Shown: positions 4,080 to 18,016 of the stretch, in pieces
Layout of the letters: every line of letters begins with the position of its first letter
How positions within the stretch are numbered: the stretch's first letter is position 1
Source of the DNA: Alphaproteobacteria bacterium
GTDB taxonomy: Bacteria; Pseudomonadota; Alphaproteobacteria; JAJFIK01
DNA length: 64,000 bases
Direction: 5' to 3'
NCBI GenBank assembly: GCA_050331455.1
Contig: JBHJGV010000015.1
Span: 7,697-71,696, forward strand
Position numbers and translations under genes: made by a program
Notes under the pieces: model-generated
Database searches by the model: none
What the model was told of the DNA's origin: nothing
The model's input: only the letters and a program-made list of their open reading frames with translations

Positions 4080-5657
4080 TCAGAAGGTCAATGCGCGGGC
4101 ACTGCGCACCAGCGGCAACCCGCGCAGGCGGTCAAGCACATCAGCGCTCACAGGCTGATCAACCTCCAGAAGGGCCAGGGCATCGCCGCCCGGCTCCCGC
4201 CGGCCCAGGGTAAAGCCGCCGATATTCACGCCCGCCTCACCCAGGGTAATGCCCATGGAGCCGATGAATCCCGGCTTGTCCTCATTGGTGGTCATCAGCA
4301 TATGCCGGCCGATACCCGCCTCGATAGGCATGCCTTCCACCTGGATCAGACGGTGCTGACCGCTGGAAAAGATGGTCCCGGCCACGCTGTGGCTGTCCGT
4401 CTCGGTTTCCACCTGGATGCGCACATAGGTCTCATAGACGCCGCGCTGTTCCCGCAGCACCTCCGACAGCTTCAGGCCCCGTTCCTTCGCGATCACAGGC
4501 GCGGACACCATATTCACGTCCGCGAGGCGCGGGCGCAGCACCCCGGCAAGACCCGCCGAGGTGAGCGCCTTGACATTCATGGACGCCACATCGCCTTCAT
4601 ATTCGATCTGCACACCGCGGATCGGCGTGTCGCAGAGTTGGCCGACGAACAGGCCCAATTGCTGCGCCAAAGTCACGAAGGGCTTCAGGATCGGCGCCTC
4701 TTCCGCCGAAATCGACGGCATATTGATCGCATTGGTCACGGCCCCCGTCAGCAGATAATCCGACATCTGCTCGGCCACCTGGAGGGCCACTTTTTCCTGG
4801 GCCTCCATGGTCGAGGCGCCAAGATGGGGCGTCGCGATCAGCTTTTCATGGCCGAACAGGGGATGGGTCTTGGCCGGCTCCTCGGCAAAAACGTCAAGGG
4901 CGGCACCGGCCAGGTGGCCACTGTCGAGGGCCTCCTTCAGGGCCGCTTCGTCCACCAGTCCGCCGCGGGCGCAGTTTACGAGGCGCGCACCGGGACGCAT
5001 CTTCTTGATGGCGTCGGCACTGACGATATTGCGCGTCTCCTCCGTCATCGGAACATGGATGGTCACGATGTCGGAGCGCTGAAGAAGCGTGTCGAGGGTG
5101 ACTTTCTCCACACCGATCTCGCGTGCCCGATCCTCCGACAGGAACGGATCATAGGCAATGACCTTCATCTTAAGGCCCTGGGCGCGGTTGGCGACAATGC
5201 TGCCGATATTGCCGCAACCAATGACGCCAAGCGTCTTCCCGGTTAATTCCGTGCCCATGAACCGGGATTTTTCCCATTTGCCGGCATGGGTCGACTCATT
5301 GGCCTGCGGAATTTGGCGTACGAGGGCCATCATCATCGCGATGGCATGTTCTGCGGTCGTCACCGAATTGCCGAAGGGCGTGTTCATCACGACAATGCCT
5401 GCGGCCGTCGCGGACGGCAGATCGATATTGTCGACGCCGATTCCGGCGCGGCCGATGACCTTCAGGTTTTTCGCCTCGGCGATCACGTCCGGTGTGGCCT
5501 TGGTGTTGGAACGCACGGCGAGACCGTCATAGTCGCCGATAATCTGGAGCAGATCCTCCTTAGGCAGACCGGGCTTGAAATCGGCCTCGATACCGCGGCT
5601 GCGGAAGATTTCAACAGCCGCTTCGCTGAGCTTGTCGGAGATCAGGACTTTAGGCAT
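4080..5657 (-). CDS. serA: D-3-phosphoglycerate dehydrogenase (with C-terminal ACT domain)
   Basis: MPKVLISDKLSEAAVEIFRSRGIEADF..., Rossmann motif GVIGCGNIGSIVA, catalytic His/Arg region, about 525 aa including the ASB and ACT regions. Confidence 0.93.
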   Translation of the reverse strand: MPKVLISDKLSEAAVEIFRSRGIEADFKPGLPKEDLLQIIGDYDGLAVRSNTKATPDVIAEAKNLKVIGRAGIGVDNIDLPSATAAGIVVMNTPFGNSVTTAEHAIAMMMALVRQIPQANESTHAGKWEKSRFMGTELTGKTLGVIGCGNIGSIVANRAQGLKMKVIAYDPFLSEDRAREIGVEKVTLDTLLQRSDIVTIHVPMTEETRNIVSADAIKKMRPGARLVNCARGGLVDEAALKEALDSGHLAGAALDVFAEEPAKTHPLFGHEKLIATPHLGASTMEAQEKVALQVAEQMSDYLLTGAVTNAINMPSISAEEAPILKPFVTLAQQLGLFVGQLCDTPIRGVQIEYEGDVASMNVKALTSAGLAGVLRPRLADVNMVSAPVIAKERGLKLSEVLREQRGVYETYVRIQVETETDSHSVAGTIFSSGQHRLIQVEGMPIEAGIGRHMLMTTNEDKPGFIGSMGITLGEAGVNIGGFTLGRREPGGDALALLEVDQPVSADVLDRLRGLPLVRSARALTF

Positions 5658-5729
5658 GGAAAAGGGTTCCTCGAAGGCCGGTCACCGGAGTGTGGCCGTT
5701 GAAAGAGCGGACTTGAAGGGCAAGGATAA

Positions 5730-6915
5730 TCAGGCGGCGGCGCGCTGTTCCTCGCGGGCCGTGGCATAGGCCCAATCGAGCCAAGGCAGGAGAGCGACGA
5801 GATCCGAGGCCTCCACCGTGGCGCCGCACCAGATGCGCAGTCCCGATGGTGCGTCCCGGTAGCTCTCGATATCGAATGCCACCGCCTCACCTTCCAGCAA
5901 GGCGCCCAGACGCTTGACCAGGGCCTTGCGGCCATCGCCATCGAGATCCAGAAAGGCCGGATCGACGATCTTGAGGCAGACGGAGGTGTTGGACCGGGTG
6001 GCCGGATCATCCGCCAGGAAATCGATCCAGTCCCGCGACTCCACGAACCGTTCCATGACGGCCAGATTGGCATCGGCCCGGGCCCTCAGACCGGCGAGAC
6101 CGCCCACACCCTGGGACCAGCGCAGGGCATCGAGATAATCCTCGACACACAGAAGGGATGGCGTGTTGATCGTCTCGCCCTTGAAAATCCCTTCGATGAG
6201 TTTGCCGCCCTTGGTCAGACGGAAGATTTTCGGCAAGGGACGGTCAGGCGTGAAACGCTCCAGGCGCTCAACGGCGCGCGGGCCGAGGATCAACATCCCA
6301 TGGGCCGCTTCGCCGCCCAGAACTTTCTGCCAGGAATACGTGACCACATCGAGCTTTGGCCAGTCGAGATCCTGGGCGAAAGCCGCGGAGGTCGCATCGC
6401 AAATGGTCAGGCCTGCGCGATCGGCCTTGATCCAGTCCGCATTCGGAACCCGCACACCGGAGGTCGTTCCGTTCCAGGTGAAGACGACATCGCGATCCGT
6501 GTCGATGGACGCGAGATCTGGGAGCTGTCCGTAATCGGCCTCGATCACGCGGCAATCAGCCAATTTCAGCTGTTTGACCGCATCGGTGACCCATCCGGCC
6601 CCGAACGATTCCCAGGCAACCACATCGACACCCCGGGCGCCGAGCATGGTCCACATGGCCATTTCCACAGCCCCCGTATCGGAGGCGGGGACGATGCCAA
6701 TCCGATAATCATCCGGAATTTCAAGGATTTGTCGCGTGAGAGCGATCGCTTCGGCGAGCTTCGCCTTTCCGACCTTGGAGCGATGGGAGCGTCCCAAAGC
6801 AGCATCGGAGAGATCTTCGACAGTCCATCCGGGGCGCTTTGCGCAGGGACCGGAGGAGAAATGCGCCCGATCGGGACGCGTAACCGGCTTGGCCGGGATC
6901 GTCTGACTTTCCATA
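5730..6915 (-). CDS. serC: Phosphoserine aminotransferase (alphaproteobacterial or archaeal-type SerC)
   Basis: Strong similarity to rhizobial SerC ([17 protein letters not shown]..., [26 protein letters not shown]). The track ORF extends to 6983, but the conserved N-terminus starts at [10 protein letters not shown] (about 6913-6915). Confidence 0.9.
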
Positions 6916-7224: not shown

Positions 7225-8373
7225 ATGACTGAACTTCTCGAATGCCAAAGACATCTCTTCGACCTGCCGCCCGGGGTCACCTATTTGAACTGCGCCTACA
7301 TGTCCCCGTCCCTGAAAACGGTCACCGCCGCGGGAGAACGCGGGGCACGGATCAAGGCCCATCCCTGGCGGATCGAGCCCAGGGATTTCTTCGCCGGCGC
7401 CGATGCGGCCCGAACCCTGTTCGCAGGTCTGATCGGAGCTGGTACGGACGATATCGCCATCGTGCCGTCGGCTAGTTACGGCATCGCATCGGCGGCAGCC
7501 AATCTTCCGCTGGCGGAGGGGCAGACCATCGTTCTGCTGGAGGAACAGTTTCCCTCCAATGTTTTCCAGTGGCGGCGCCGGGCCGACGAGGCCAGGGCAC
7601 GGATTGTCACCGTGGCCCGGCCGCATGCCGGTGACGGGTCGTGGAGCGAGGCAGTCCTCGCCGCCATCGGCGAGGATACGGCTGTCGTGGCCCTGCCCCA
7701 TTGCCACTGGACCGATGGCGCCCTGATGGACCTTGCCGCCATTTCCCGCCGGTGCCGGACGGTCGGGGCCGCCCTCGTCCTCGACCTGTCCCAGTCCCTC
7801 GGAGCCCTGCCGATCGGGATCGGTACGGTGGATGCGGACTTTCTGGTCACCCCCTGCTACAAATGGCTGCTTGGGCCCTACAGCCTGGGATTTCTCTATG
7901 TCGCACCGCGCCACCAGAACGGCATTCCCCTGGAGGAGACGTGGATCGGCCGTCAAGGGGCGGAGGATTTCGCCCGGCTGACCGCCTATACCGAGACCTG
8001 GGACACCGGCGCCCGCCGCTTCGACATGGGCGCCCGGGCCCATTTTCACCTCTTGCCCATGGCCTGCGCAGCGCTCGCGCAGATCGGCGACTGGCAGATC
8101 CCGCGCATCGCGGCAACCCTTGGCCGCATGACCGGCGAGATTGCCGACCGGGCCCAGGCCCTCGGCCTCGCCGTGCCGCCGGAGGCCGAACGCGCACCCC
8201 ATTTCATCGGCCTGCGCTTTCCCGGTGGCATGCCGGAGGGCTTGCTTGGCAGATTGAAAGAACGAGACATCTATGTCAGCGCCCGGGGGGACGCGCTCCG
8301 CGTCACGCCCCACCTTTATAACGGCACGGAGGATATCGACGTGTTGTTTTCCAGCCTCAAGGAGCTGATGTGA
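7225..8373 (+). CDS. Class V aminotransferase-fold PLP-dependent enzyme (function unassigned)
   Basis: Fold-type I/class V signatures (YLNCAYMSP near the N-terminus, PLP-lysine context TPCYKWLLGPYSLGFLY). Divergent from serC. Its stop overlaps the start of the downstream EamA gene. Confidence 0.75.
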   Translation: MTELLECQRHLFDLPPGVTYLNCAYMSPSLKTVTAAGERGARIKAHPWRIEPRDFFAGADAARTLFAGLIGAGTDDIAIVPSASYGIASAAANLPLAEGQTIVLLEEQFPSNVFQWRRRADEARARIVTVARPHAGDGSWSEAVLAAIGEDTAVVALPHCHWTDGALMDLAAISRRCRTVGAALVLDLSQSLGALPIGIGTVDADFLVTPCYKWLLGPYSLGFLYVAPRHQNGIPLEETWIGRQGAEDFARLTAYTETWDTGARRFDMGARAHFHLLPMACAALAQIGDWQIPRIAATLGRMTGEIADRAQALGLAVPPEAERAPHFIGLRFPGGMPEGLLGRLKERDIYVSARGDALRVTPHLYNGTEDIDVLFSSLKELM

Positions 8374-9272
8374 CCGAACACTCTTCCCGCGATGGGGGCG
8401 CATGGGGGCTGCTGGCCATCCTTGTCTGCCTTTACGGCTCCGCATTCTTGTTGATCAAGATCACGGTGGAGACGATCTCGCCCGTTTCTGCCGTGGCCAT
8501 CCGTATCGTGACGGCCACCGCCGTGCTGCTGGTCGCATGCCTTGTGATGGGGCGGCGCCTGCCGCCGCTCCGGGGCCTGCGCCATTGGGGCATGCTCGCC
8601 ATTCTCGGCATCACCGGCTCCGTGGCGCCTTTCATTCTCATCTCATGGGGCCAGCAGACCGTGCCGTCCAGCCTTGCGGGCATTCTCATGGCCATCATGC
8701 CCCTGACGACCATGGTGCTCGCCGCGGCCCTGGTGCCCGGCGAAGCGATCACGCCGCGCCGGCTGGCGGGCTTCACCATGGGCTTTTTCGGCCTGGTCAT
8801 CCTGTTCGGGCCCACGGCCCTCGGCCTCGCGGGCCGGGTGGGGGTGCTGGCGCAACTGGCGATCCTTTCCGGCGCCTGCTTCTATGCGCTTAACGCGGTC
8901 CTGTCGAAACACCGACCGCCGATGGATGCGCTCACGGCCGCCACAGCCATTCATCTGTGCGCGTCGTTCATGATCGTGCCCCTGGCCTTCCTCGTCGAAG
9001 ATCCGATGACCTTGGAACCGAGCCAGGCGTCCCTCGCCGCGGTGACGACTCTCGGCGTCCTCTGCAGCGCCTTTGCCACCCTTGTGCTGTTGCGCCTGAT
9101 CGACCGGGCAGGACCGAGCTTTACGGCACAGATCAACTACCTGATCCCGCTCTGGGCGACCGGTCTCGGTATCATCCTGCTGGGGGAAAATCCGGGCATG
9201 GAAGCATTGCCAGCCCTGATCCTGATCCTCGGCGGCATTGCCGTGGCCCAGGATCGGCGGAAGGCGGGTTGA
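8370..9272 (+). CDS. EamA/DMT-family transporter
   Basis: Ten predicted TM helices with two EamA repeats. Overlaps the stop of the upstream aminotransferase by 4 nt (ATGA-type coupling). Confidence 0.85.
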   Translation: MTEHSSRDGGAWGLLAILVCLYGSAFLLIKITVETISPVSAVAIRIVTATAVLLVACLVMGRRLPPLRGLRHWGMLAILGITGSVAPFILISWGQQTVPSSLAGILMAIMPLTTMVLAAALVPGEAITPRRLAGFTMGFFGLVILFGPTALGLAGRVGVLAQLAILSGACFYALNAVLSKHRPPMDALTAATAIHLCASFMIVPLAFLVEDPMTLEPSQASLAAVTTLGVLCSAFATLVLLRLIDRAGPSFTAQINYLIPLWATGLGIILLGENPGMEALPALILILGGIAVAQDRRKAG

Positions 9273-9323
9273 GCCTTCCGCCCCGGCCTGATCGGAACCG
9301 CCAAGGGCGGGCCATGGCGCCGA

Positions 9324-9845
9324 TCACAAATGGGCGATCTCTTTGAGCCCGACATTTTCGGCCCGAATGCGGATGAACAGAACGCCCGCATGGGCGATGG
9401 ACACAAGCACTGCAAGCCCCGTCAGCCCAAGGGCGAGCGGAACGGTGGCGATCTCGGCCACCACCAGCCAGTAATTCGGGTGCTTGATGAATTTATAGGG
9501 CCCGCGTGCCACCAGCGGCTCGTCCAGAATGATGATCCGCGTGGTCCAGCGCGAGCCCAGGCTGGCCAGGATCCAGATCCGAAAGACCTGGAGCAGCGCA
9601 TAGACAACAACCCAGAGCGCCACGAGACCCTGGTTCCACCCGAAAATCCACATCAGCACCAGCCAGGTGGCATGGAAGCCAACCATCAGCGGGTAATGAT
9701 CGGCGCCGATCTCCCGGGCGCCTTTGGCGAGGAGTCGTTCCGTGTTGTGCTTGGCAATGCGAAGCTCGATCAGACGCTGGGCCGTGACCACGGATAAAAG
9801 GGCGAGACCCCATCCCGCGGGCCCCTGGAACACCGTTTCCAGCAT
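9324..9845 (-). CDS. ICMT/PEMT-family membrane methyltransferase (SrsB/BpsB-like candidate O-methyltransferase)
   Basis: 173-aa polytopic protein with the C-terminal ICMT-family region (RIWILASLGSRWTTRIIILDEPLVARGPYKFIKHPNYW). Located 21 nt downstream of the type III PKS on the same strand. Confidence 0.8.
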   Translation of the reverse strand: MLETVFQGPAGWGLALLSVVTAQRLIELRIAKHNTERLLAKGAREIGADHYPLMVGFHATWLVLMWIFGWNQGLVALWVVVYALLQVFRIWILASLGSRWTTRIIILDEPLVARGPYKFIKHPNYWLVVAEIATVPLALGLTGLAVLVSIAHAGVLFIRIRAENVGLKEIAHL

Positions 9846-9866
9846 GATGCCGTTCTCCCGAAATGA

Positions 9867-11159
9867 TCAGCCGTCAAACGACAGGGGAATCATGGAAGCC
9901 GTGAAGCCCGGGCCCAGGCCCGTGAGCAGCACGCGGCCCCGAGGCCCCGTCCGGCGGAAGCGGTCCAGGACGAACAAAACGGTGGGTGCGGACATATTCC
10001 CAAAATCCTCGATCACACCCCGCTCGTGGTCGAGGGCGCCCGCTTCGAGGCCCATTGTGGCCTCGATGGCCTCAAGCACCTTGATGCCGCCGGGGTGACA
10101 GACATAGCGGGTGATGTCCTCGCGGGTCAGATCCATCCGTTCCAGGCAGAAATCCACTGCGCCGGCGAACTCGCCGGTCACGAAGGGGGGGATGGAGCGG
10201 TCGAAAATCACGCCGAAACCGGTGGGATCCACGTCCCAGCCCATGATGTTCAGGCTATCGGTCCAGATATGCTGGACACCCGCGCCGAGCCGAGGCGCGC
10301 CGGTTGTCCCATTGCCGCCGTTCGTGCCGTTCACCGGGCCGCCCGGCATGTGGCTCGACAGCACGGCGGCAGCCGCCCCGTCGCCGAACAGAACCGTGGC
10401 GATGATGTCCGCCTTGCGGAGCTGGTCGTCCCGGAAGGCCAGGGTGCAGGTCTCAACACACACGAGAAGCACCGTGCTGCCGGGGCTTGCGGCCGCCAGG
10501 CGCTGGGCGATGGCAAGGCCGCTGACCCCGCCGGCACAGCCCAGGCCGAACACCGGCACACGCAGGATATCGTGGCGAAAACCCATGGTGCCGAAGGCCC
10601 GGGCTTCCAGAGTCGGCGTCGCAATTCCGGTCGAGGAAACGGTGACCACCACATCGACATCGGCTGCGGCGAGACCGGCCTCCGCGAGGGCGTTGGTCGC
10701 CGCCTCGACAAAGAGGGCCGTGGCCCCCTCCAGATACCGGGCCGTGCGCTCGGGCCAGTCCTGGGATGTCTGGAACCATTCCAGCGGGCAGACCGAGTAG
10801 CGCGTCTTCACACCGGACGACGTGAAGGTTCGGGCGAGGCGCTGGAAGTCCGGAAAGCGGGGACCGAGGATGCGGCCGGCGATCACCTCGACCACGTCCT
10901 GCTCCAGGACATGGGGCGGCACGGCCGTGCCGAGGCCGGCGAGGCGCACATCGGCCAGCGGGGCGTCCAGGGGCGCAGGAAAAGGGGCCGCGAGGGGGGC
11001 CGCGGCCGCCTCAGCGGCGGTGGAGCCGGTGCGCAGGGCCATCGGCGATGCAGGTGTCGAATTTTGAGGCATAGACTTCCGTTCTCTCGGTCTGGTGGAC
11101 TTGGCTTGTGCCGGCTCCGCCCTCCGTCCCGCATTGGGCCATCGCCGTCGTTTGGTCAC
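9867..11159 (-). CDS. Type III polyketide synthase (chalcone/stilbene-synthase superfamily)
   Basis: Active-site Cys context GLGCAGG, C-terminal GFGPGFTASM and catalytic His/Asn regions. N-terminal Ala/Pro-rich extension; the true start could be an internal Met (MPQNSTP or MALRTGS). Confidence 0.9.
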   Translation of the reverse strand: MTKRRRWPNAGRRAEPAQAKSTRPRERKSMPQNSTPASPMALRTGSTAAEAAAAPLAAPFPAPLDAPLADVRLAGLGTAVPPHVLEQDVVEVIAGRILGPRFPDFQRLARTFTSSGVKTRYSVCPLEWFQTSQDWPERTARYLEGATALFVEAATNALAEAGLAAADVDVVVTVSSTGIATPTLEARAFGTMGFRHDILRVPVFGLGCAGGVSGLAIAQRLAAASPGSTVLLVCVETCTLAFRDDQLRKADIIATVLFGDGAAAAVLSSHMPGGPVNGTNGGNGTTGAPRLGAGVQHIWTDSLNIMGWDVDPTGFGVIFDRSIPPFVTGEFAGAVDFCLERMDLTREDITRYVCHPGGIKVLEAIEATMGLEAGALDHERGVIEDFGNMSAPTVLFVLDRFRRTGPRGRVLLTGLGPGFTASMIPLSFDG

Positions 11160-11260
11160 ATTAGGGGGTTGCGCCCCGGCTGCCGACCCTGGATCTGCAG
11201 TCGCTTTGCACTGCGAGATGCGGAACAGCCTTTGCGCGCGTTATCTCGCCGCCGTCTCCG

Positions 11261-11320
11261 CACGGGTTGGGCCGGCACGGGCTGGGCCGGCACGGGGTGG
11301 GCCAGCACGGGTTGGGGACG
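11261..11320. repeat. 15-bp tandem repeat, four copies (cacgggNtgggccgg), in the MMPL-PKS intergenic region
   Basis: Read directly: cacgggttgggccgg / cacgggctgggccgg / cacggggtgggccag / cacgggttggggacg, head to tail. Confidence 0.9.
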
Positions 11321-11333
11321 TCTTCTCCTCCGG

Positions 11334-13757
11334 TCAAGGCAGACGCCCCGGCGCACCCTTGTGGAACCGCAGGGCAAGGATCGCCGGCAAGGCCACAAGG
11401 CAGGTCACAAGCGCAATGCCGATCGTGGCAATGGCGAACAGGGCGAAGGTCGCGATCCCGGGCGACCAGCTCAGCAGGGCCGGCGCCAGGCCGAGCATCA
11501 ATACCAGACTGGTGAGCACAAGAACCGGGCCCACGTCCCGCATGGTCTTTGCGAGGCAGGTCCGCGGCGCCCGGCCTGCGCAGCGCTGGGCCCAGAACCC
11601 ATTCATCATATGCACCGTATCATCGACCGCGATGCCGAGGGCGATTGTCATCGCCAGGGCACTCGCCAATTGCAAGGGCCAATCGAACACATAAAGCAGA
11701 CCGCCCACTGCCAGCACCGGCAGAATGTTCGGCACAATGGTCAGCAGCGACACTTCAAAGGAGCGGAAGCCGAGCCCGACCAGCAGGGACGTGCCCAGGG
11801 CCGCGATCACCAAGGAAATCCCGAGCCTTCGAATGATCTCCTCGCTCACCCGGGAGGCCAGAACCACAATGCCGGTGGCCTGACCCGTCAGGTCCGCCTC
11901 GAGTTCCTCGCCGGCGATGGCCTCGATGCGGGCGGCGACGTCCGCCAGATTGGTCTTGTCCGTCTCCGCCACCCGAACCACCAGGGCGAGGGTGCTGCCG
12001 TCCCTGGACAGCAACAAACCTTTGAGGCCCTGGGGAGCGTGGTTAAACACCGTCTCGAGGCGCGGCGCGGAGACCGTCCTCCCCGTATCCGAGAGCCAGG
12101 AAACGATGGTCCAGGCGGAGTAGACCGGTCGGCCCAGGTCTGCCTCGACCGCCTTGTGCACACTGCGCAGCTTGAGCAGCGGCGCGAGATCGAAATTCTC
12201 TGCATTCACGGGGATCGGCAAAGGCATATGGAGCGTGTGGGCCCCGCCCAACTCTTCCTCCAACCGCTGCATGAGGGCGAAGGTTTCGGAATCATCCGGC
12301 ACTTCTTCGAGATAGGTGTAGCTCGGCGAGACCTGGCTATAGGCGAGGCCCGCGGCGACAGTAAAGGCGACGATCACCACCGTGATGACCAGGCGATAGC
12401 CATAAAGCGTGCGGGTCAGCGCGACGGCGGCGGCTTCGATGCCCTTGGCGATCCAGCCCGTGCCACGGAAGGTCGGCCGGGGACGCCACCCCAGATGCAG
12501 GGCCACCCACACCGAGGCCGGGAAGAAAACCATCGCCGAGATGAACACGCCGGCCACGGATGCCGCTCCGATCAAACCGAACTCGACCACGGCCCGGGAG
12601 CCGGAAAAGACCAGCGACAGGAAAGCGACCACGGTGGTCATGCTGGCGAGGCTGCAGGCCGGGCCGATGAAACCGATCGTTTTGGCAATGGCCTTGAAAT
12701 CGTAATTCGCAGCGAAAAGATCGCGCCGCGCCGCATAGACCAGGTGCATATTGGCGGCAAATGCGAGAGCGAGCACCAGCAATGGCAGATCGTTGAGCAG
12801 GACCGTCATGGGAATGTCGAGCCAGCCAAAGGCGCCATACACCATAACGATGCTGAGCATGGGCATCACGGCCACGATCACCGCATCCACCAGGACCCCG
12901 AGCAGGGCCACGCCCAGCAGAAACCCGATACTCAAACCGCCACCGAGCAGCAGCGGATGCTCCTCGATCAGGTGGCGCACGATTTCCGCCCGCACGATAG
13001 GAAGACCACTGAGCATCGCGGTCATGCCGTCGGGCAGACTGGCGATCAAGGGCGCCAGATCCTGTTCGATCGCCCGGGCCTCTTCCAGCCGCTCGCCCTT
13101 TTCCGGGAGCGCGAGCACCAGGGTGGCCGTCTCGAAATCGGGGCTGAGGAGCCGCCCGCCTTCGTTGAGGGGATGGAGGGAGAGCGCCTCGGCGCTCAGT
13201 GCCATATCGGGCTTGTTGGGTTCGGCCGTGGCAGGCTCACCCTCGGTGTGGCTCAAGGCCTGTTCGAGGGCCGCCGCTTCGAATTCGGCATTGTCGAAAA
13301 TATCGTCTTCGAAATCTTCCGGCTCCGGATCGCCCGCCGAGGTTTCCAGGCGATCGAGACTGACAATCGAAACCACATCCCCGACGGACGGCAGGGCCTC
13401 GACGGCGTGGATCAGACCCTGGAGCGCCAGCCAGTGGTCCTGCCGTTTGAAATCCCCGTCGAGCACGAGGATTGCGGCATCCGAGCCGTCCACAAACTGT
13501 CCGCGGAACTGATCGTAGGTCTGGTAGGCCGTGCTGCTCGGCGACTGGAAAATGCTGGTCAGGTTATCGGCGAAGCGGGTCTTGGTCGCCCCAAAAACCG
13601 CAAAGGCCAACACAAGGGCGATCACGGAGAGCATGACGCGGGGCTTCGCGACGGCAAACAGGCCGATGCGTTCGAGGCCGAAACCGATTGAGCCCACGCC
13701 GGTCCTCCAAAACTGCAGGCAGCACGTCCCGGATCGGTCCGGCGCATGCGAAACCAC
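11334..13757 (-). CDS. MMPL/RND-superfamily transporter (HpnN/MmpL-like lipid exporter)
   Basis: About 807 aa with 12 TM helices in two 6-TM bundles, each preceded by a large periplasmic loop (MMPL architecture). First gene of the minus-strand operon with the PKS and methyltransferase. Confidence 0.85.
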   Translation of the reverse strand: MVSHAPDRSGTCCLQFWRTGVGSIGFGLERIGLFAVAKPRVMLSVIALVLAFAVFGATKTRFADNLTSIFQSPSSTAYQTYDQFRGQFVDGSDAAILVLDGDFKRQDHWLALQGLIHAVEALPSVGDVVSIVSLDRLETSAGDPEPEDFEDDIFDNAEFEAAALEQALSHTEGEPATAEPNKPDMALSAEALSLHPLNEGGRLLSPDFETATLVLALPEKGERLEEARAIEQDLAPLIASLPDGMTAMLSGLPIVRAEIVRHLIEEHPLLLGGGLSIGFLLGVALLGVLVDAVIVAVMPMLSIVMVYGAFGWLDIPMTVLLNDLPLLVLALAFAANMHLVYAARRDLFAANYDFKAIAKTIGFIGPACSLASMTTVVAFLSLVFSGSRAVVEFGLIGAASVAGVFISAMVFFPASVWVALHLGWRPRPTFRGTGWIAKGIEAAAVALTRTLYGYRLVITVVIVAFTVAAGLAYSQVSPSYTYLEEVPDDSETFALMQRLEEELGGAHTLHMPLPIPVNAENFDLAPLLKLRSVHKAVEADLGRPVYSAWTIVSWLSDTGRTVSAPRLETVFNHAPQGLKGLLLSRDGSTLALVVRVAETDKTNLADVAARIEAIAGEELEADLTGQATGIVVLASRVSEEIIRRLGISLVIAALGTSLLVGLGFRSFEVSLLTIVPNILPVLAVGGLLYVFDWPLQLASALAMTIALGIAVDDTVHMMNGFWAQRCAGRAPRTCLAKTMRDVGPVLVLTSLVLMLGLAPALLSWSPGIATFALFAIATIGIALVTCLVALPAILALRFHKGAPGRLP

Positions 13758-14215
13758 TGAAACACAAGTCTGTTCAGCGCGCAGACCGCCTAGCGCTGCG
13801 CGTCGCCCCCGAACCGACTTCCCTTGCCCCTCGTCTTATCCTTTCGCTCCCGACAGCGGCAAGCCTTACCGGAGCAGTCATGGTTGAATGACGGGGAAAT
13901 GGGGCGCCCGGGAGACAAAAACGCTCACGGGTCGATCACGATGGGCCAATGATACTCGCCCAGCCCCCCGCCCCGTGCCTTGATCCTGGTCAGGGCCAAC
14001 ACGCCATCCGTGAAGACCCGCAACCACACACCACTATGGGGCACTGAGGTCAAGACCGTGCCATCGGGGCACCCGGTCGGCCAAGCATTGGGCCGCGCGG
14101 CATTGGGGTCGTGCAAGCGGAGTGTTCATGGCATCGTTTGAAATGGCGGCCGGGCTGACCCGGCTGTCCGTATCGGAAAGAGCCCGCCGACGGGCCAATG
14201 GCGAGGGAGGGCCGG

Positions 14216-16009
14216 ATGAAAAAGGTCATTCGGATCGGTGGCGCGAGCGGGTATTGGGGCGAGTCCGCCATGGCCACGCCCCAGCTTCTGGCCTCTGGCG
14301 ATCTCGATTATCTCGTTTTCGACTATCTGGCCGAGATCACCATGTCGATCATGGCCCGGGCGCGCGCCAAGGATCCGGCCCAGGGCTATGCCAGCGATTT
14401 CATCCGTGTGGTGCTGAAAGACAATCTCCACGACATTGCCCGCCAGGGCGTGCGCGTCATCTCCAATGCCGGGGGTGTCAATCCGGAGGCCTGCGCCGCC
14501 GCGGCGCGCGCGCTCATCCGCGAGACCGGGCTCGACCTGAAGGTCGCCGTGGTGACCGGCGACGATCTGACAAGCCATGCCGCCGGCTTTGCCGAGGCCG
14601 GGGTGGCGGAGATGTTTTCGGGGGAGCATTTTCCCGATGCGAAGCGCGTGGCCAGCATCAATGCTTATCTGGGCGCTTTTCCCATTGCCGAGGCGCTCGG
14701 CCGCGGCGCCGACATCGTGATCACCGGCCGCTGTGTCGATAGCGCCGTGACCCTCGGCGCCTGCATCCACGAATTCGGGTGGCAGGCGGACGATTGGGAC
14801 CGGCTCGCCGCGGGCACCCTGGCCGGCCATTTGATCGAATGCGGGCCGCAGGTCACCGGCGGCAATTTCACAGATTGGGAACAGGTCGCCGCCACGATCC
14901 AGGATATCGGCTATCCCATCGCCGAAATCGACAGCGTGGGCGTCACGACCGTCACCAAGCCCGAGGGCACAGGCGGACTGGTTTCCCCAGGCACGGTCGC
15001 AGAACAGATGCTCTATGAAATCGGCGATCCCCAGGCCTATATCGTGCCCGATGTGGTGTGTGACTTCTCCGGCGTCCGCTTCACGCAAGTCGCTCCCGAC
15101 CGGGTCCGGGTGGAGGGCGCCAAGGGCACCCCGGCGACGGACAACTACAAGGCCTGCGCCACCGTCGCCGACGGCTTTCGCGGCGGCACGGTCATGACCT
15201 TCTACGGCATCGATGCGGACGCGAAGGCCCGTGCCTTTGCCGAAGCGGCCGTCGCCCGGGCGCGCAAGACCCTGCGCACCCTGAATATTGGTGACTTCCG
15301 CGAAATCAGTATCGAAGTGATCGGGGCGGAAAGTCAGTACGGCGCCGGCCGCCGCATCGACGGGGCCCGCGAAGTCGCCGTCAAGATCGCCGCCAAACAT
15401 GACGAACAGAAAGGGGTCGGCGTTCTCCTGCGGGAGATCAGCGGCCTCGGTCTCGCCACGCCGCCGGGCCTCTCCGGGTTCCAGGGCGGCCGGCCAAGCC
15501 CGTCACCCGTAGTACGGCTGTTTTCCTTCCTGGTGCCCAAGGCGGCCGTTCCCATCACTCTGAATACGGACGGGGACACCGTCGGCCTGCCAATCCCCAA
15601 GAGCATGCCGGCCCGGACAAGTGCGATCGCGCGGCCTGAAAACCCCGACCGGCCGGATTTCGGCGGCACACCCATCACGGTGCCGCTGATCCGTCTCGCC
15701 TGGGGCCGCAGCGGCGACAAGGGGGACCACGCCAATGTGGGCATCATTGCGCGCAATCCGGACTATCTTCCCTTTATCTGGGCAGCCCTGACGGAAGAGG
15801 TAGTGGCCGGGGTGTTTGCCCATTTCGATCCGGCCCGGGTCGAGCGGTTCTACCTGCCGGGCCCGCCGGCGATCAATTTCATGATCCATGAGGTGCTCGG
15901 CGGCGGAGGAATGGCCAGCCTGCGGAACGATCCCCAAGGCAAGGGCTATGCCCAGATTCTGCTCGATTATCCGATTCCCGTCCCGGCGCGCCTCGCCGGC
16001 CAAGTCTAA
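14216..16009 (+). CDS. AtuA-like protein (DUF1446 fused to C-terminal DUF4387)
   Basis: MKKVIRIGGASGYWGE... N-terminus typical of acyclic-terpene-utilisation AtuA family; length of about 600 aa matches full-length AtuA. Start chosen at MKKVIRIGG rather than the track's upstream Met. Confidence 0.75.
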   Translation: MKKVIRIGGASGYWGESAMATPQLLASGDLDYLVFDYLAEITMSIMARARAKDPAQGYASDFIRVVLKDNLHDIARQGVRVISNAGGVNPEACAAAARALIRETGLDLKVAVVTGDDLTSHAAGFAEAGVAEMFSGEHFPDAKRVASINAYLGAFPIAEALGRGADIVITGRCVDSAVTLGACIHEFGWQADDWDRLAAGTLAGHLIECGPQVTGGNFTDWEQVAATIQDIGYPIAEIDSVGVTTVTKPEGTGGLVSPGTVAEQMLYEIGDPQAYIVPDVVCDFSGVRFTQVAPDRVRVEGAKGTPATDNYKACATVADGFRGGTVMTFYGIDADAKARAFAEAAVARARKTLRTLNIGDFREISIEVIGAESQYGAGRRIDGAREVAVKIAAKHDEQKGVGVLLREISGLGLATPPGLSGFQGGRPSPSPVVRLFSFLVPKAAVPITLNTDGDTVGLPIPKSMPARTSAIARPENPDRPDFGGTPITVPLIRLAWGRSGDKGDHANVGIIARNPDYLPFIWAALTEEVVAGVFAHFDPARVERFYLPGPPAINFMIHEVLGGGGMASLRNDPQGKGYAQILLDYPIPVPARLAGQV

Positions 16010-16021
16010 GAGCGAGGCCCC

Positions 16022-18016
16022 ATGGGAGACCTCAACACCATCCTGATCGCCAATCGCGGGGAAATCGCTGTTCGGATCATCCGAACCGTGAGGACCATGG
16101 GCCGCCGCGCCGTCGCCGTCTACTCGCAGGCCGATGCAGGCGCGCCCCATGTGGTGCTGGCGGACGATGCCGTCCTGATCGGTCCCGCCCCCGTGAGCGA
16201 AAGCTATCTAGACCCGGACCGCATTCTGGAGGCGGCCCGCGCCACCGGTGCCGACGCGGTCCATCCGGGCTACGGCTTCCTGTCCGAAAACGCCGGCTTC
16301 GCCGCCGCCTGTGTGGAGGCAGGCCTGACCTTCATCGGCCCTTCCCCCGAAGCCATTGCCGCCATGGGCAACAAGGCCGATGCCAAACGTCGCATGATCG
16401 CCGCCGGGGTCCCGTGCGTGCCGGGCTATGGGGGCGAGGACCAGAGCACGCGCAGCCTGATCGACGCAGGACGCGCGATCGGCTTTCCGTTGATGGTCAA
16501 GGCCGCGGCCGGTGGCGGCGGTCGGGGGATGCGCCTCGTCCTTGTGCCGGATGCCCTGCCGGACGCCCTCGCCCTGGCCCGCTCCGAAGCCGAGAATGCC
16601 TTCGGCTCGGACGAATTGATCCTGGAGCGTGCCATCGTCCGCCCCCGCCATGTGGAATTTCAGGTGTTCGGCGATTCCCATGGCAGCGTGGTCCATATGG
16701 GTGAACGGGACTGTTCCGTGCAAAGACGCCACCAGAAAGTGATCGAGGAAGCCCCCTGCCCCGTCCTCACCCCCGATCTGCGGGCCCGGATGGGCGAGGC
16801 CGCCGTCACCGCCGCAAGAGCCATCGGCTATGAGGGGGCAGGCACGGTGGAATTCCTCCTCGGCGAAGACGGCGCGTTCTACTTCCTGGAAATGAACACG
16901 CGGCTGCAAGTGGAGCACCCCGTGACGGAGCTGGTCACGGGCCTCGACCTGGTCGCGTTGCAGATCCATGTGGCCGAAGGCCGCCCCCTTGGCCTGCGCC
17001 AGGAGGACGTGACGATGGACGGCCATGCCATCGAAGCCCGTCTTTATGCGGAGGACCCGGCTCAGACCTTCCTGCCCGCCACCGGTACGATCGCCCTGTG
17101 GCAACCGGCCGCCGGTGAGGGCGTTCGGGTGGATACGGGTATTGCTTCGGGCCAGGTGGTGTCGCCCTTCTACGATCCCATGATCGCCAAGGTGATGGCC
17201 CATGGGCCGACCCGGGACGTCGCCCGTCGGCGCCTTGCGGCCGCGCTGAAGGAAACGGCCTTGTTCGGCCTGCGGACCAATCGCGGGTTCCTAATCGACT
17301 GCCTGGAGCGGGAAGCCTTCGCCCGGGGGGCCGCCACGACGGCCTTCATCGCCGAGGAATTCGGTGCCGAGGCCCTCGCCGGCCCGACCCCGGACCTGTC
17401 CCAGGCCGCCATGGCGGGCGTCATTGACTATACGCGTCGGCACGAGGCGGCCGCAGCCAAGAGCCGGACGCCGGTAGGCGCGCTCAAAGATTGGATCAGC
17501 GCGGACACCATCGGCTTTCCCTATCGCGCCCGCGTGGGCGACATGGAGGTGGATCTCACGATCATGCCCCTCGGCGCCGACCGTTACCGGGTGCACGGCC
17601 ATAGCGGAACGCTGGAGGTTGGCATCGAACGGATCGCCCCGCCCCACGCCCGATTGCAGGTCGAGGGACGGCGCCGCCAGGTCCTTTTCCTGGCCCCATC
17701 AGACACGGATCTGCACCTCCAGGACGGATCGGCGAGCTTCGTGTTCCACAATACCCTGGCCGATGAGACGGGGGCCGAAGACGCTGCCGGTGGAGGCCGG
17801 ATCACGGCCCCCATGCATGGCCGGATTGTCGAGATTTTCGTCGAAGCGGGTCAAACCGTGGTGCCCGGCGACCGCCTCGCCATCCTGGAAGCCATGAAGA
17901 TGCAGCACGAGATCCTCGCCGAGGCCGGTGGCACCGTGGCCCTCATCCATGCTGAGGCGGGAGCCCAAGTCGCGGCCAACGCCATGTTGTTCGACATCGA
18001 GGTCGCATCGCCATGA
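16022..18016 (+). CDS. Biotin carboxylase-BCCP fusion (acyl-CoA carboxylase alpha subunit)
   Basis: ATP-grasp biotin-carboxylase domain (IANRGEIAVRIIRT, GYGFLSEN, catalytic core) plus a C-terminal biotinyl domain carrying EAMKMQHE. Confidence 0.92.
   Translation: MGDLNTILIANRGEIAVRIIRTVRTMGRRAVAVYSQADAGAPHVVLADDAVLIGPAPVSESYLDPDRILEAARATGADAVHPGYGFLSENAGFAAACVEAGLTFIGPSPEAIAAMGNKADAKRRMIAAGVPCVPGYGGEDQSTRSLIDAGRAIGFPLMVKAAAGGGGRGMRLVLVPDALPDALALARSEAENAFGSDELILERAIVRPRHVEFQVFGDSHGSVVHMGERDCSVQRRHQKVIEEAPCPVLTPDLRARMGEAAVTAARAIGYEGAGTVEFLLGEDGAFYFLEMNTRLQVEHPVTELVTGLDLVALQIHVAEGRPLGLRQEDVTMDGHAIEARLYAEDPAQTFLPATGTIALWQPAAGEGVRVDTGIASGQVVSPFYDPMIAKVMAHGPTRDVARRRLAAALKETALFGLRTNRGFLIDCLEREAFARGAATTAFIAEEFGAEALAGPTPDLSQAAMAGVIDYTRRHEAAAAKSRTPVGALKDWISADTIGFPYRARVGDMEVDLTIMPLGADRYRVHGHSGTLEVGIERIAPPHARLQVEGRRRQVLFLAPSDTDLHLQDGSASFVFHNTLADETGAEDAAGGGRITAPMHGRIVEIFVEAGQTVVPGDRLAILEAMKMQHEILAEAGGTVALIHAEAGAQVAANAMLFDIEVASP

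Follow-up and report, generated by a model that had tools for sequence, protein, structure and literature searches.

The stretch of DNA analysed here (the window) is 64,000 nucleotides long and corresponds to positions 7,697 to 71,696 of contig JBHJGV010000015.1 from an alphaproteobacterium (assembly GCA_050331455.1). Its region 9324-13757 contains three genes that all run on the minus strand and encode an RND-superfamily transporter, a type III polyketide synthase (PKS) and an ICMT-family methyltransferase (Table 1). This arrangement, first proposed in a preliminary description of the region, was confirmed by the open reading frames (ORFs), their strand and translations, and by matches of the products to Pfam profiles. 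The start of the RND gene was placed at a GTG codon at 13697, which follows a GGAGGA Shine-Dalgarno sequence and gives the same 787-aa protein as the NCBI call. The PKS start was placed at an ATG codon at 11072, following a GGAAG Shine-Dalgarno sequence, and the resulting N-terminus, MPQNSTPASP, is kept in homologue P0002. Both proteins are shorter than those predicted from the maximal ORFs. With the starts set at these codons, 261 bp separate the RND gene from the PKS gene (174 bp for the maximal ORFs), while the methyltransferase gene begins 21 bp past the PKS stop codon. The short gaps initially reported for the cluster are therefore found between the PKS and methyltransferase genes, but not between the RND and PKS genes. 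The GC content at third codon positions (GC3) is 0.78 to 0.83 in the three genes, and codon-position GC supports all three calls. A 1221-aa antisense ORF on the plus strand (10026-13691), which overlaps the RND and PKS genes, was discarded as an artefact of high GC, since its GC3 is below the GC content of its first codon positions and its product has no Pfam match.

Table 1. Features of the transporter, PKS and methyltransferase locus (window coordinates).
Feature	Position	Strand	Description
RND-superfamily transporter gene	11334..13697	-	MMPL/HAE3/HpnN-like, 787 aa; 12 predicted transmembrane helices and 2 periplasmic domains; "A-type" PKS-linked clade
RND-PKS spacer	11073..11333	-	261 bp; with 15-bp tandem repeat
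Type III PKS gene	9867..11072	-	401 aa; Chal_sti_synt_N and Chal_sti_synt_C, triad intact
ICMT-family methyltransferase gene	9324..9845	-	173 aa, polytopic, S-adenosylmethionine (SAM)-dependent family; Pfam ICMT
Divergent intergenic region between RND gene and AtuA-family gene	13698..14215	.	Presumed promoter region of the cluster

The size of the RND-PKS spacer is due in part to a 15-bp tandem repeat at 11260-11316 (plus-strand consensus GCACGGGTTGGGCCG, 3.8 copies, 90% matches), which enlarges it to its present length; the corresponding gaps in relatives range from -14 to 149 bp. This repeat has no counterpart in the spacers of the relatives' loci L004 and L006, and it does not recur elsewhere in the window. 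A scan of positions 9000-14400 found no sigma-70-like promoter, the spacer included. Terminator-like matches in the same interval all fall within coding sequence, with no intrinsic terminator in the spacer, and an Rfam scan of the interval returned nothing meaningful, its lone match having an E value of 0.95.

The PKS matches Chal_sti_synt_N with 82.5 bits and Chal_sti_synt_C with 47.6 bits (cutoff 27 for each), identifying it as a type III PKS. The Cys-His-Asn catalytic triad, which the preliminary description had named as the check on this enzyme, is invariant in an 18-sequence alignment (A1), where it occupies C169/H316/N349 in the numbering of P0001, corresponding to C179/H326/N359 of the 401-aa protein. 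The three residues lie in the motifs GLGCAGG, CHPGG and GNMSAPT, and they also align with the triad of Mycobacterium tuberculosis Pks11 (PDB 4JAO). Pks11, a long-chain acyl-primed alkylpyrone synthase, is the best solved relative of the window PKS and aligns with it end to end (176 bits), but the similarity is moderate and the window PKS has two additions. The first is a tail of approximately 40 residues that precedes the conserved VRLxGLGTAVPP core. The Ala/Pro-rich N-terminal extension noted earlier is thus real, but it is of low complexity and is not conserved, even in the closest homologues. The second is a Gly/Asn-rich loop insertion common only to the window PKS and its closest, 88%-identical homologue. 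A score of 164 bits against the DpgA equivalog NF042429 (cutoff 425) indicates that the PKS is related to DpgA but is not itself DpgA.

The methyltransferase scores 75.5 bits against the Pfam family ICMT (PF04140; cutoff 24) and 28 bits against PEMT. Its hydrophobic segments indicate a polytopic protein, and its GPYKFIKHPNY motif (GPYxxxKHPNY) aligns with the GIYKNIRHPMY region of Ma-ICMT (4A2N), in keeping with the conserved cofactor-binding region that the family has at its C-terminus. With only 19 bits against the prenylcysteine methyltransferase equivalog NF040696 (cutoff 160), it is not a true protein-S-isoprenylcysteine O-methyltransferase. In order to place the PKS-ICMT pair among its relatives, 80 alphaproteobacterial loci with 52-65% PKS identity were compared, including loci from Devosia, Rhodobacterales, Bradyrhizobium, Rhizobium and Caulobacteraceae, among others. 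These were the best matches in species-representative genomes and not a random sample, and their genes were called with a heuristic based on GC3, which tblastn searches backed up. In 79 of the 80 loci, the gene that directly follows the PKS gene on its strand encodes an ICMT homologue; the sole locus without one after its PKS is L086 of Rhizobium chutanense (8001-9029 and downstream). The pair is therefore a widespread module of the BpsA/BpsB-DquA/DquB kind. Both questions raised earlier about the methyltransferase, whether it is of the prenylcysteine type and whether it stays beside the PKS in relatives, are answered in favour of the original assignment. By its position beside a type III PKS and its co-inheritance with it, the enzyme fits a putative phenolic-lipid O-methyltransferase of the SrsB/BpsB type.

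The transporter belongs to a much smaller group, of some 11-15 sequence clusters. Proteins with at least 36% identity to the window RND formed 11 clusters among 5.8 billion proteins, and a search of 1.84 billion 50%-identity clusters gave 8 representatives at 40% identity or above, compared with 461 at E<=1e-30. At the 36% threshold, eight window-type lineages had readable gene context (window/L003, L004, L006, L007, L087, L089, L091 and L093), and in all eight the RND gene is immediately upstream of the PKS gene. The flanking genes are wholly different among L007, L087, L089, L091 and L093, and in L091 and L093 the RND stop and PKS start codons overlap. The L093 contig ends within the gene after the RND, the N-terminus of which has the PKS signature VRLLGLGTATPPH. 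Two further RNDs, P0127 and P0128, are on contigs of the same lengths as those of the PKS matches P0008 and P0009, which indicates that their genes are arranged alike. In the PKS tree, the PKSs from loci with a window-type RND group as a single clade. No PKS was found near P0132, an RND relative with 26% identity, and PKS linkage is absent in 79 of 80 metagenomic loci of RND relatives at 21-29% identity. Since these relatives are not PKS-linked, the linkage is specific to the window-type clade. The three genes are strictly co-inherited, and the suggested association of the RND with the PKS was upheld for every readable RND of the clade, each lying directly upstream of a PKS(-ICMT) set among unrelated flanks.

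Some of these loci carry additional genes. In L089, a FAD_binding_3 monooxygenase (5549-6718) is encoded upstream of the RND, in an SrsC-like position. L091 has a TauD dioxygenase gene upstream (5996-6889) and an extra MFS gene downstream (11138-12370), and L087 has a convergent gene for an AMP-binding ligase (11058-12746). Homologues of the L089 monooxygenase, the L087 ligase and the L091 TauD protein were not found in the 64-kb window.

The RND protein matches the Pfam families Sterol-sensing (44 bits), Patched (42 bits) and MMPL (36 bits, cutoff 20.5). Among NCBIfam models its best match is HAE3 (TIGR00921), with 137 bits against a cutoff of 352, followed by HpnN (TIGR03480; 37.5 against 752) and MMPL/actII (TIGR00833; 35.6 against 875). 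By these scores it represents a separate clade, outside the curated HAE3, HpnN and MMPL/actII subfamilies. An AlphaFold model based on a 17-sequence alignment (pLDDT 85, pTM 0.82) shows, with high confidence, 12 transmembrane (TM) helices and two porter/periplasmic domains. Its sole disordered part is an acidic loop of residues 128-165 (approximately window 13203-13316), with pLDDT below 50. This loop (EPEDFEDDIFDNAEFEAA...) sits in the first periplasmic domain and is poorly conserved among homologues. When the model was searched against the PDB with Foldseek, MmpL4 and MmpL5 ranked first (TM-scores 0.71-0.77, E values 1e-19 to 1e-20), MmpL3, HpnN and NPC1-type proteins came next, and AcrB-type pumps ranked lower. 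A sequence-only search of the PDB gave weak AcrB-like matches in the TM region only.

A tripartite HAE1-type efflux pump, with an AcrB-like permease of approximately 1000 aa, was considered for the RND and ruled out, as the protein has 787 aa and its AcrB-like matches are weak. No gene for a membrane fusion protein (MFP) adaptor or outer-membrane factor was found in the RND gene neighbourhood. Because of the fold match and the lack of an adaptor or channel gene nearby, the RND is predicted to work like the single-component lipid RNDs. These include MmpL4, MmpL5 and MmpL3 of mycobacteria and the Burkholderia hopanoid transporter HpnN, which are single-component transporters of lipids or lipophiles encoded beside the biosynthetic genes of their cargo. 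The predicted fold of the window RND is like theirs (TM-scores 0.64-0.77), but sequence identity is only 12-16%, and an MmpS-like partner was not seen. The MmpL-PKS couplings known so far involve type I PKSs.

The window RND also differs from the MmpL and HpnN proteins in lacking an Asp in TM helix 4 (TM4). In the TM4 motif F-[AS]-D-x-[ML]-H, this Asp is replaced by A, S, T or N in all 15 window-type RNDs (alignment A4), so that the window RND reads FAANMH (residues 313-318) where relatives read FADSMH. The Asp pair of TM10 (AVDDTVH, residues 689-696) is kept in the window-type RNDs, as are both conserved histidines, His318 among them. Nearly all relatives outside the clade retain the TM4 Asp, including a second type of RND found downstream of the ICMT gene in other loci. 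The loss hints that proton coupling is altered in the window-type proteins, or that they do not act as pumps.

MFS or RND genes flank 42 of the 80 PKS-ICMT loci. An MFS gene is present in 32 loci, directly after the ICMT gene in 30 and divergent upstream in 2; its product has approximately 515 aa, matches Pfam MFS_1 and is of 14-TM size. In nine loci a distant MMPL-type RND (26-32% identity) is encoded directly after the ICMT, and this downstream-type RND is always followed by a secreted (signal-peptide) protein of approximately 170 aa with a weak DUF1579 match, which could be a candidate periplasmic lipid-binding partner. The window-type RND is found upstream in one locus, 34 loci have no adjacent transporter, and 4 were too short to judge. 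Transporter type tracks PKS phylogeny in these trees, which were built by neighbour-joining and carry no support values. In the first such tree the upstream-type and downstream-type RNDs appeared as sisters, a result that was dropped because the outgroup sample was biased. When representatives from the exhaustive search were used, the two types split into deep clades of their own, whose branching order the tree does not resolve, and other RNDs are nearer to the window type than the downstream type is. An exporter dedicated to the module had been presented as lying outside the SrsAB and BpsAB models; no transporter is described in the BpsAB loci and SrsABC has no RND, but a transporter beside the module is unexceptional in Alphaproteobacteria. 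The occurrence of different transporter lineages beside the same biosynthetic pair is the best indirect evidence for transport of the product. That one module is found with three different transporters (an RND upstream, an RND downstream together with a DUF1579-like protein, or an MFS protein) suggests that export is a recurrent requirement.

Examples of the MFS gene after the ICMT gene are seen in L030 (9544-11097) and L075 (9544-11085), which belong to the Bradyrhizobium/Rhizobium/Caulobacter-type clade of the module. The loci with a downstream RND are from Rhodobacterales/Hyphomicrobiales (L014, L016, L020, L021, L025, L032, L036, L038 and L054), and the arrangement is seen at approximately 9550-12300 in each.

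On the other side of the presumed promoter region, the divergent neighbour of the RND gene is an atu-like cluster (window 14198-18016, plus strand), with AtuA followed by a biotin carboxylase/biotin carboxyl carrier protein (BCCP). In L006 (102-6428), carboxyltransferase and enoyl-CoA hydratase genes lie between those for AtuA and the biotin carboxylase/BCCP protein; the window has neither of them there. The two nearest relatives have a TetR-family gene between the AtuA gene and the RND (L004 6325-6975, L006 6565-7212). A tblastn search with the L004 TetR protein found no remnant of this gene in the window.

The explanation that we favour, with moderate confidence, is that the locus encodes a three-gene phenolic-lipid module that makes, methylates and exports a long-chain pyrone or resorcinol lipid. 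In the mechanism that we infer, as regards substrate, product, transport direction and energy coupling, the PKS would lengthen a long-chain fatty acyl starter by a few malonyl (or methylmalonyl) units and close the chain into an alkylpyrone, an alkylresorcinol or both. In the inner membrane, the ring hydroxyl would then be O-methylated by the ICMT-like integral membrane enzyme in a SAM-dependent reaction. Finally, the MmpL/HpnN-like RND, working with neither an adaptor nor an outer-membrane channel partner, would extract this lipid, once methylated, from the inner membrane and pass it on towards the periplasm, the outer membrane or the exterior. The putative synthesis, O-methylation and export outlined in the preliminary description find support in synteny and predicted folds.

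Several observations weigh against this explanation. The RND scores under the curated HAE3 and HpnN cutoffs, and the loss of the TM4 Asp in all window-type RNDs casts doubt on ordinary proton-driven pumping. In 34 of the 80 loci no transporter gene adjoins the pair, so export cannot be a fixed requirement of the PKS-ICMT module. The 261-bp spacer could hold a promoter of its own, so that the three genes of the window may not form one operon.

A more specific proposal, which we put forward tentatively and hold to be possible rather than probable, is that the window-type RNDs are a small lineage, confined to Alphaproteobacteria in our sample, that co-evolved exclusively with the PKS-ICMT pair. 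With the proton-relay site rewired through loss of the TM4 Asp, they would serve as dedicated carriers that take alkylpyrone or alkylresorcinol lipids, once methylated, from the inner membrane to the outer one. If this is true, the RND would be the polyketide-lipid counterpart of HpnN for hopanoids and MmpL3 for mycolates, and the exchange of MFS for RND partners between sister clades would identify phenolic lipids as an envelope component that Alphaproteobacteria generally export.

The same biosynthesis could also be served by an RND acting as an efflux or self-protection pump, which would secrete a diffusible product such as a signal or antimicrobial instead of placing a lipid in the envelope. 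The replacement of the RND by an MFS protein in sister clades would suit this role, as would the presence of both an RND and an MFS gene around the pair in L091, and the RND and MFS transporters encoded in cyanobacterial type III PKS clusters have been interpreted as pointing to a role outside the cell (PMC8086630). We consider it unlikely all the same, because the fold of the RND is like that of the lipid-handling MmpL and HpnN proteins and not that of AcrB-type drug pumps. With no adaptor or outer-membrane channel gene nearby, crossing of the outer membrane would be left unexplained, and the products of Pks11- and BpsA-like enzymes are very hydrophobic.

Less probable still is that the product is a redox-active electron carrier of the alkyl-quinone type, as has been proposed for mycobacterial type III PKS products, which the RND would position in the membrane with no export. 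That the closest solved homologue is Pks11 would fit this idea, and the L089 monooxygenase just upstream of the RND recalls SrsC, but a hydroxylase or monooxygenase homologue is found nowhere in the 64-kb window, nor is one found beside the cluster in L003, L004, L006, L007 or L087. We regard it as similarly improbable that the RND is not an active pump at all, but binds or senses lipids in the manner of a sterol-sensing domain, or acts as a scaffold, so as to organise or regulate the PKS-ICMT pathway. The TM4 Asp loss is specific to the PKS-linked clade, since both the relatives that lack PKS linkage and the downstream-type RNDs keep this residue, and the best Pfam match of the protein is to Sterol-sensing and not to MMPL. 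Set against this are the retained TM10 motif and histidines, the complete transporter architecture of 12 TM helices and two porter domains, and the bona fide transporters at functionally analogous positions in other clades. The remaining alternative, that the RND is a mere neighbour serving, for example, the divergent atu-like acyl/terpenoid-CoA cluster, would accord with the long spacer and with the atu-like genes just upstream in the window, L004 and L006, but we give it very little weight, as it is largely refuted by synteny: RND-PKS adjacency stays in the five lineages without atu genes (L007, L087, L089, L091 and L093), two of which have an RND stop codon that overlaps the PKS start codon, and the clade-specific linkage is not random.

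The interest of a proposed phenolic-lipid module with its own exporter lies in the properties of its expected product. Bacterial phenolic lipids, which include alkylresorcinols, alkylpyrones and the methyl ethers of both, change the properties of the envelope, as in Azotobacter cysts, Streptomyces and Bacillus, and we know of no described route for the delivery of lipids as insoluble as these within a diderm cell. A transporter strictly inherited with the biosynthetic pair is a testable candidate for this step, and the trio offers a minimal three-gene cassette for tests of heterologous production and secretion.

Among known systems, the proteobacterial enzymes RpsA and ArsABCD resemble the window PKS as type III PKSs for long-chain alkylpyrones and alkylresorcinols. 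RpsA, from the alphaproteobacterium Rhodospirillum centenum, takes C6-C20 acyl-CoA starters (PMC6274091), and the products of ArsB and ArsC of Azotobacter vinelandii are cyst lipids (PMC8776678). The PKSs of ArsABCD are coupled to a dedicated type I fatty acid synthase, and that system has neither an ICMT nor an RND. Type III PKSs were noted earlier in Alphaproteobacteria through mining of Acetobacteraceae (PMC8776678). The combination of a type III PKS with a methyltransferase is shared with SrsABC of Streptomyces griseus and with the hidABC-type methyltransferase-oxidoreductase-PKS operons of cyanobacteria and Planctomycetota, in which it leads to alkylresorcinol-derived lipids (PMC10896814; PMC8086630). 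These operons hold a hydroxylase or oxidoreductase (SrsC, HidB) and no RND, whereas the window lacks such an enzyme and only its relative L089 has one. The cyanobacterial clusters that encode RND and MFS transporters are a further point of comparison, but they have cytochrome b5, hybrid type I/III PKSs and uncharacterised products, with no ICMT partner reported. In the open-access literature searched, no paper was found on an alphaproteobacterial type III PKS-ICMT module with a dedicated MmpL/HpnN-like RND. The gene order is also that of BpsA/BpsB of Bacillus subtilis and DquA/DquB of Sporomusaceae, where a PKS gene is likewise followed by one for a small polytopic ICMT-family methyltransferase; these pairs make alkylpyrones or alkylresorcinols, which BpsB O-methylates (PMC9827899). 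No transporter has been described in those loci, and their hosts are spore-forming Firmicutes/Negativicutes, whereas the host here is an alphaproteobacterial metagenome-assembled genome. The PKS-ICMT core is thus of a kind already known from BpsAB, DquAB and SrsAB, and linkage to a transporter is common in the PKS-ICMT family.

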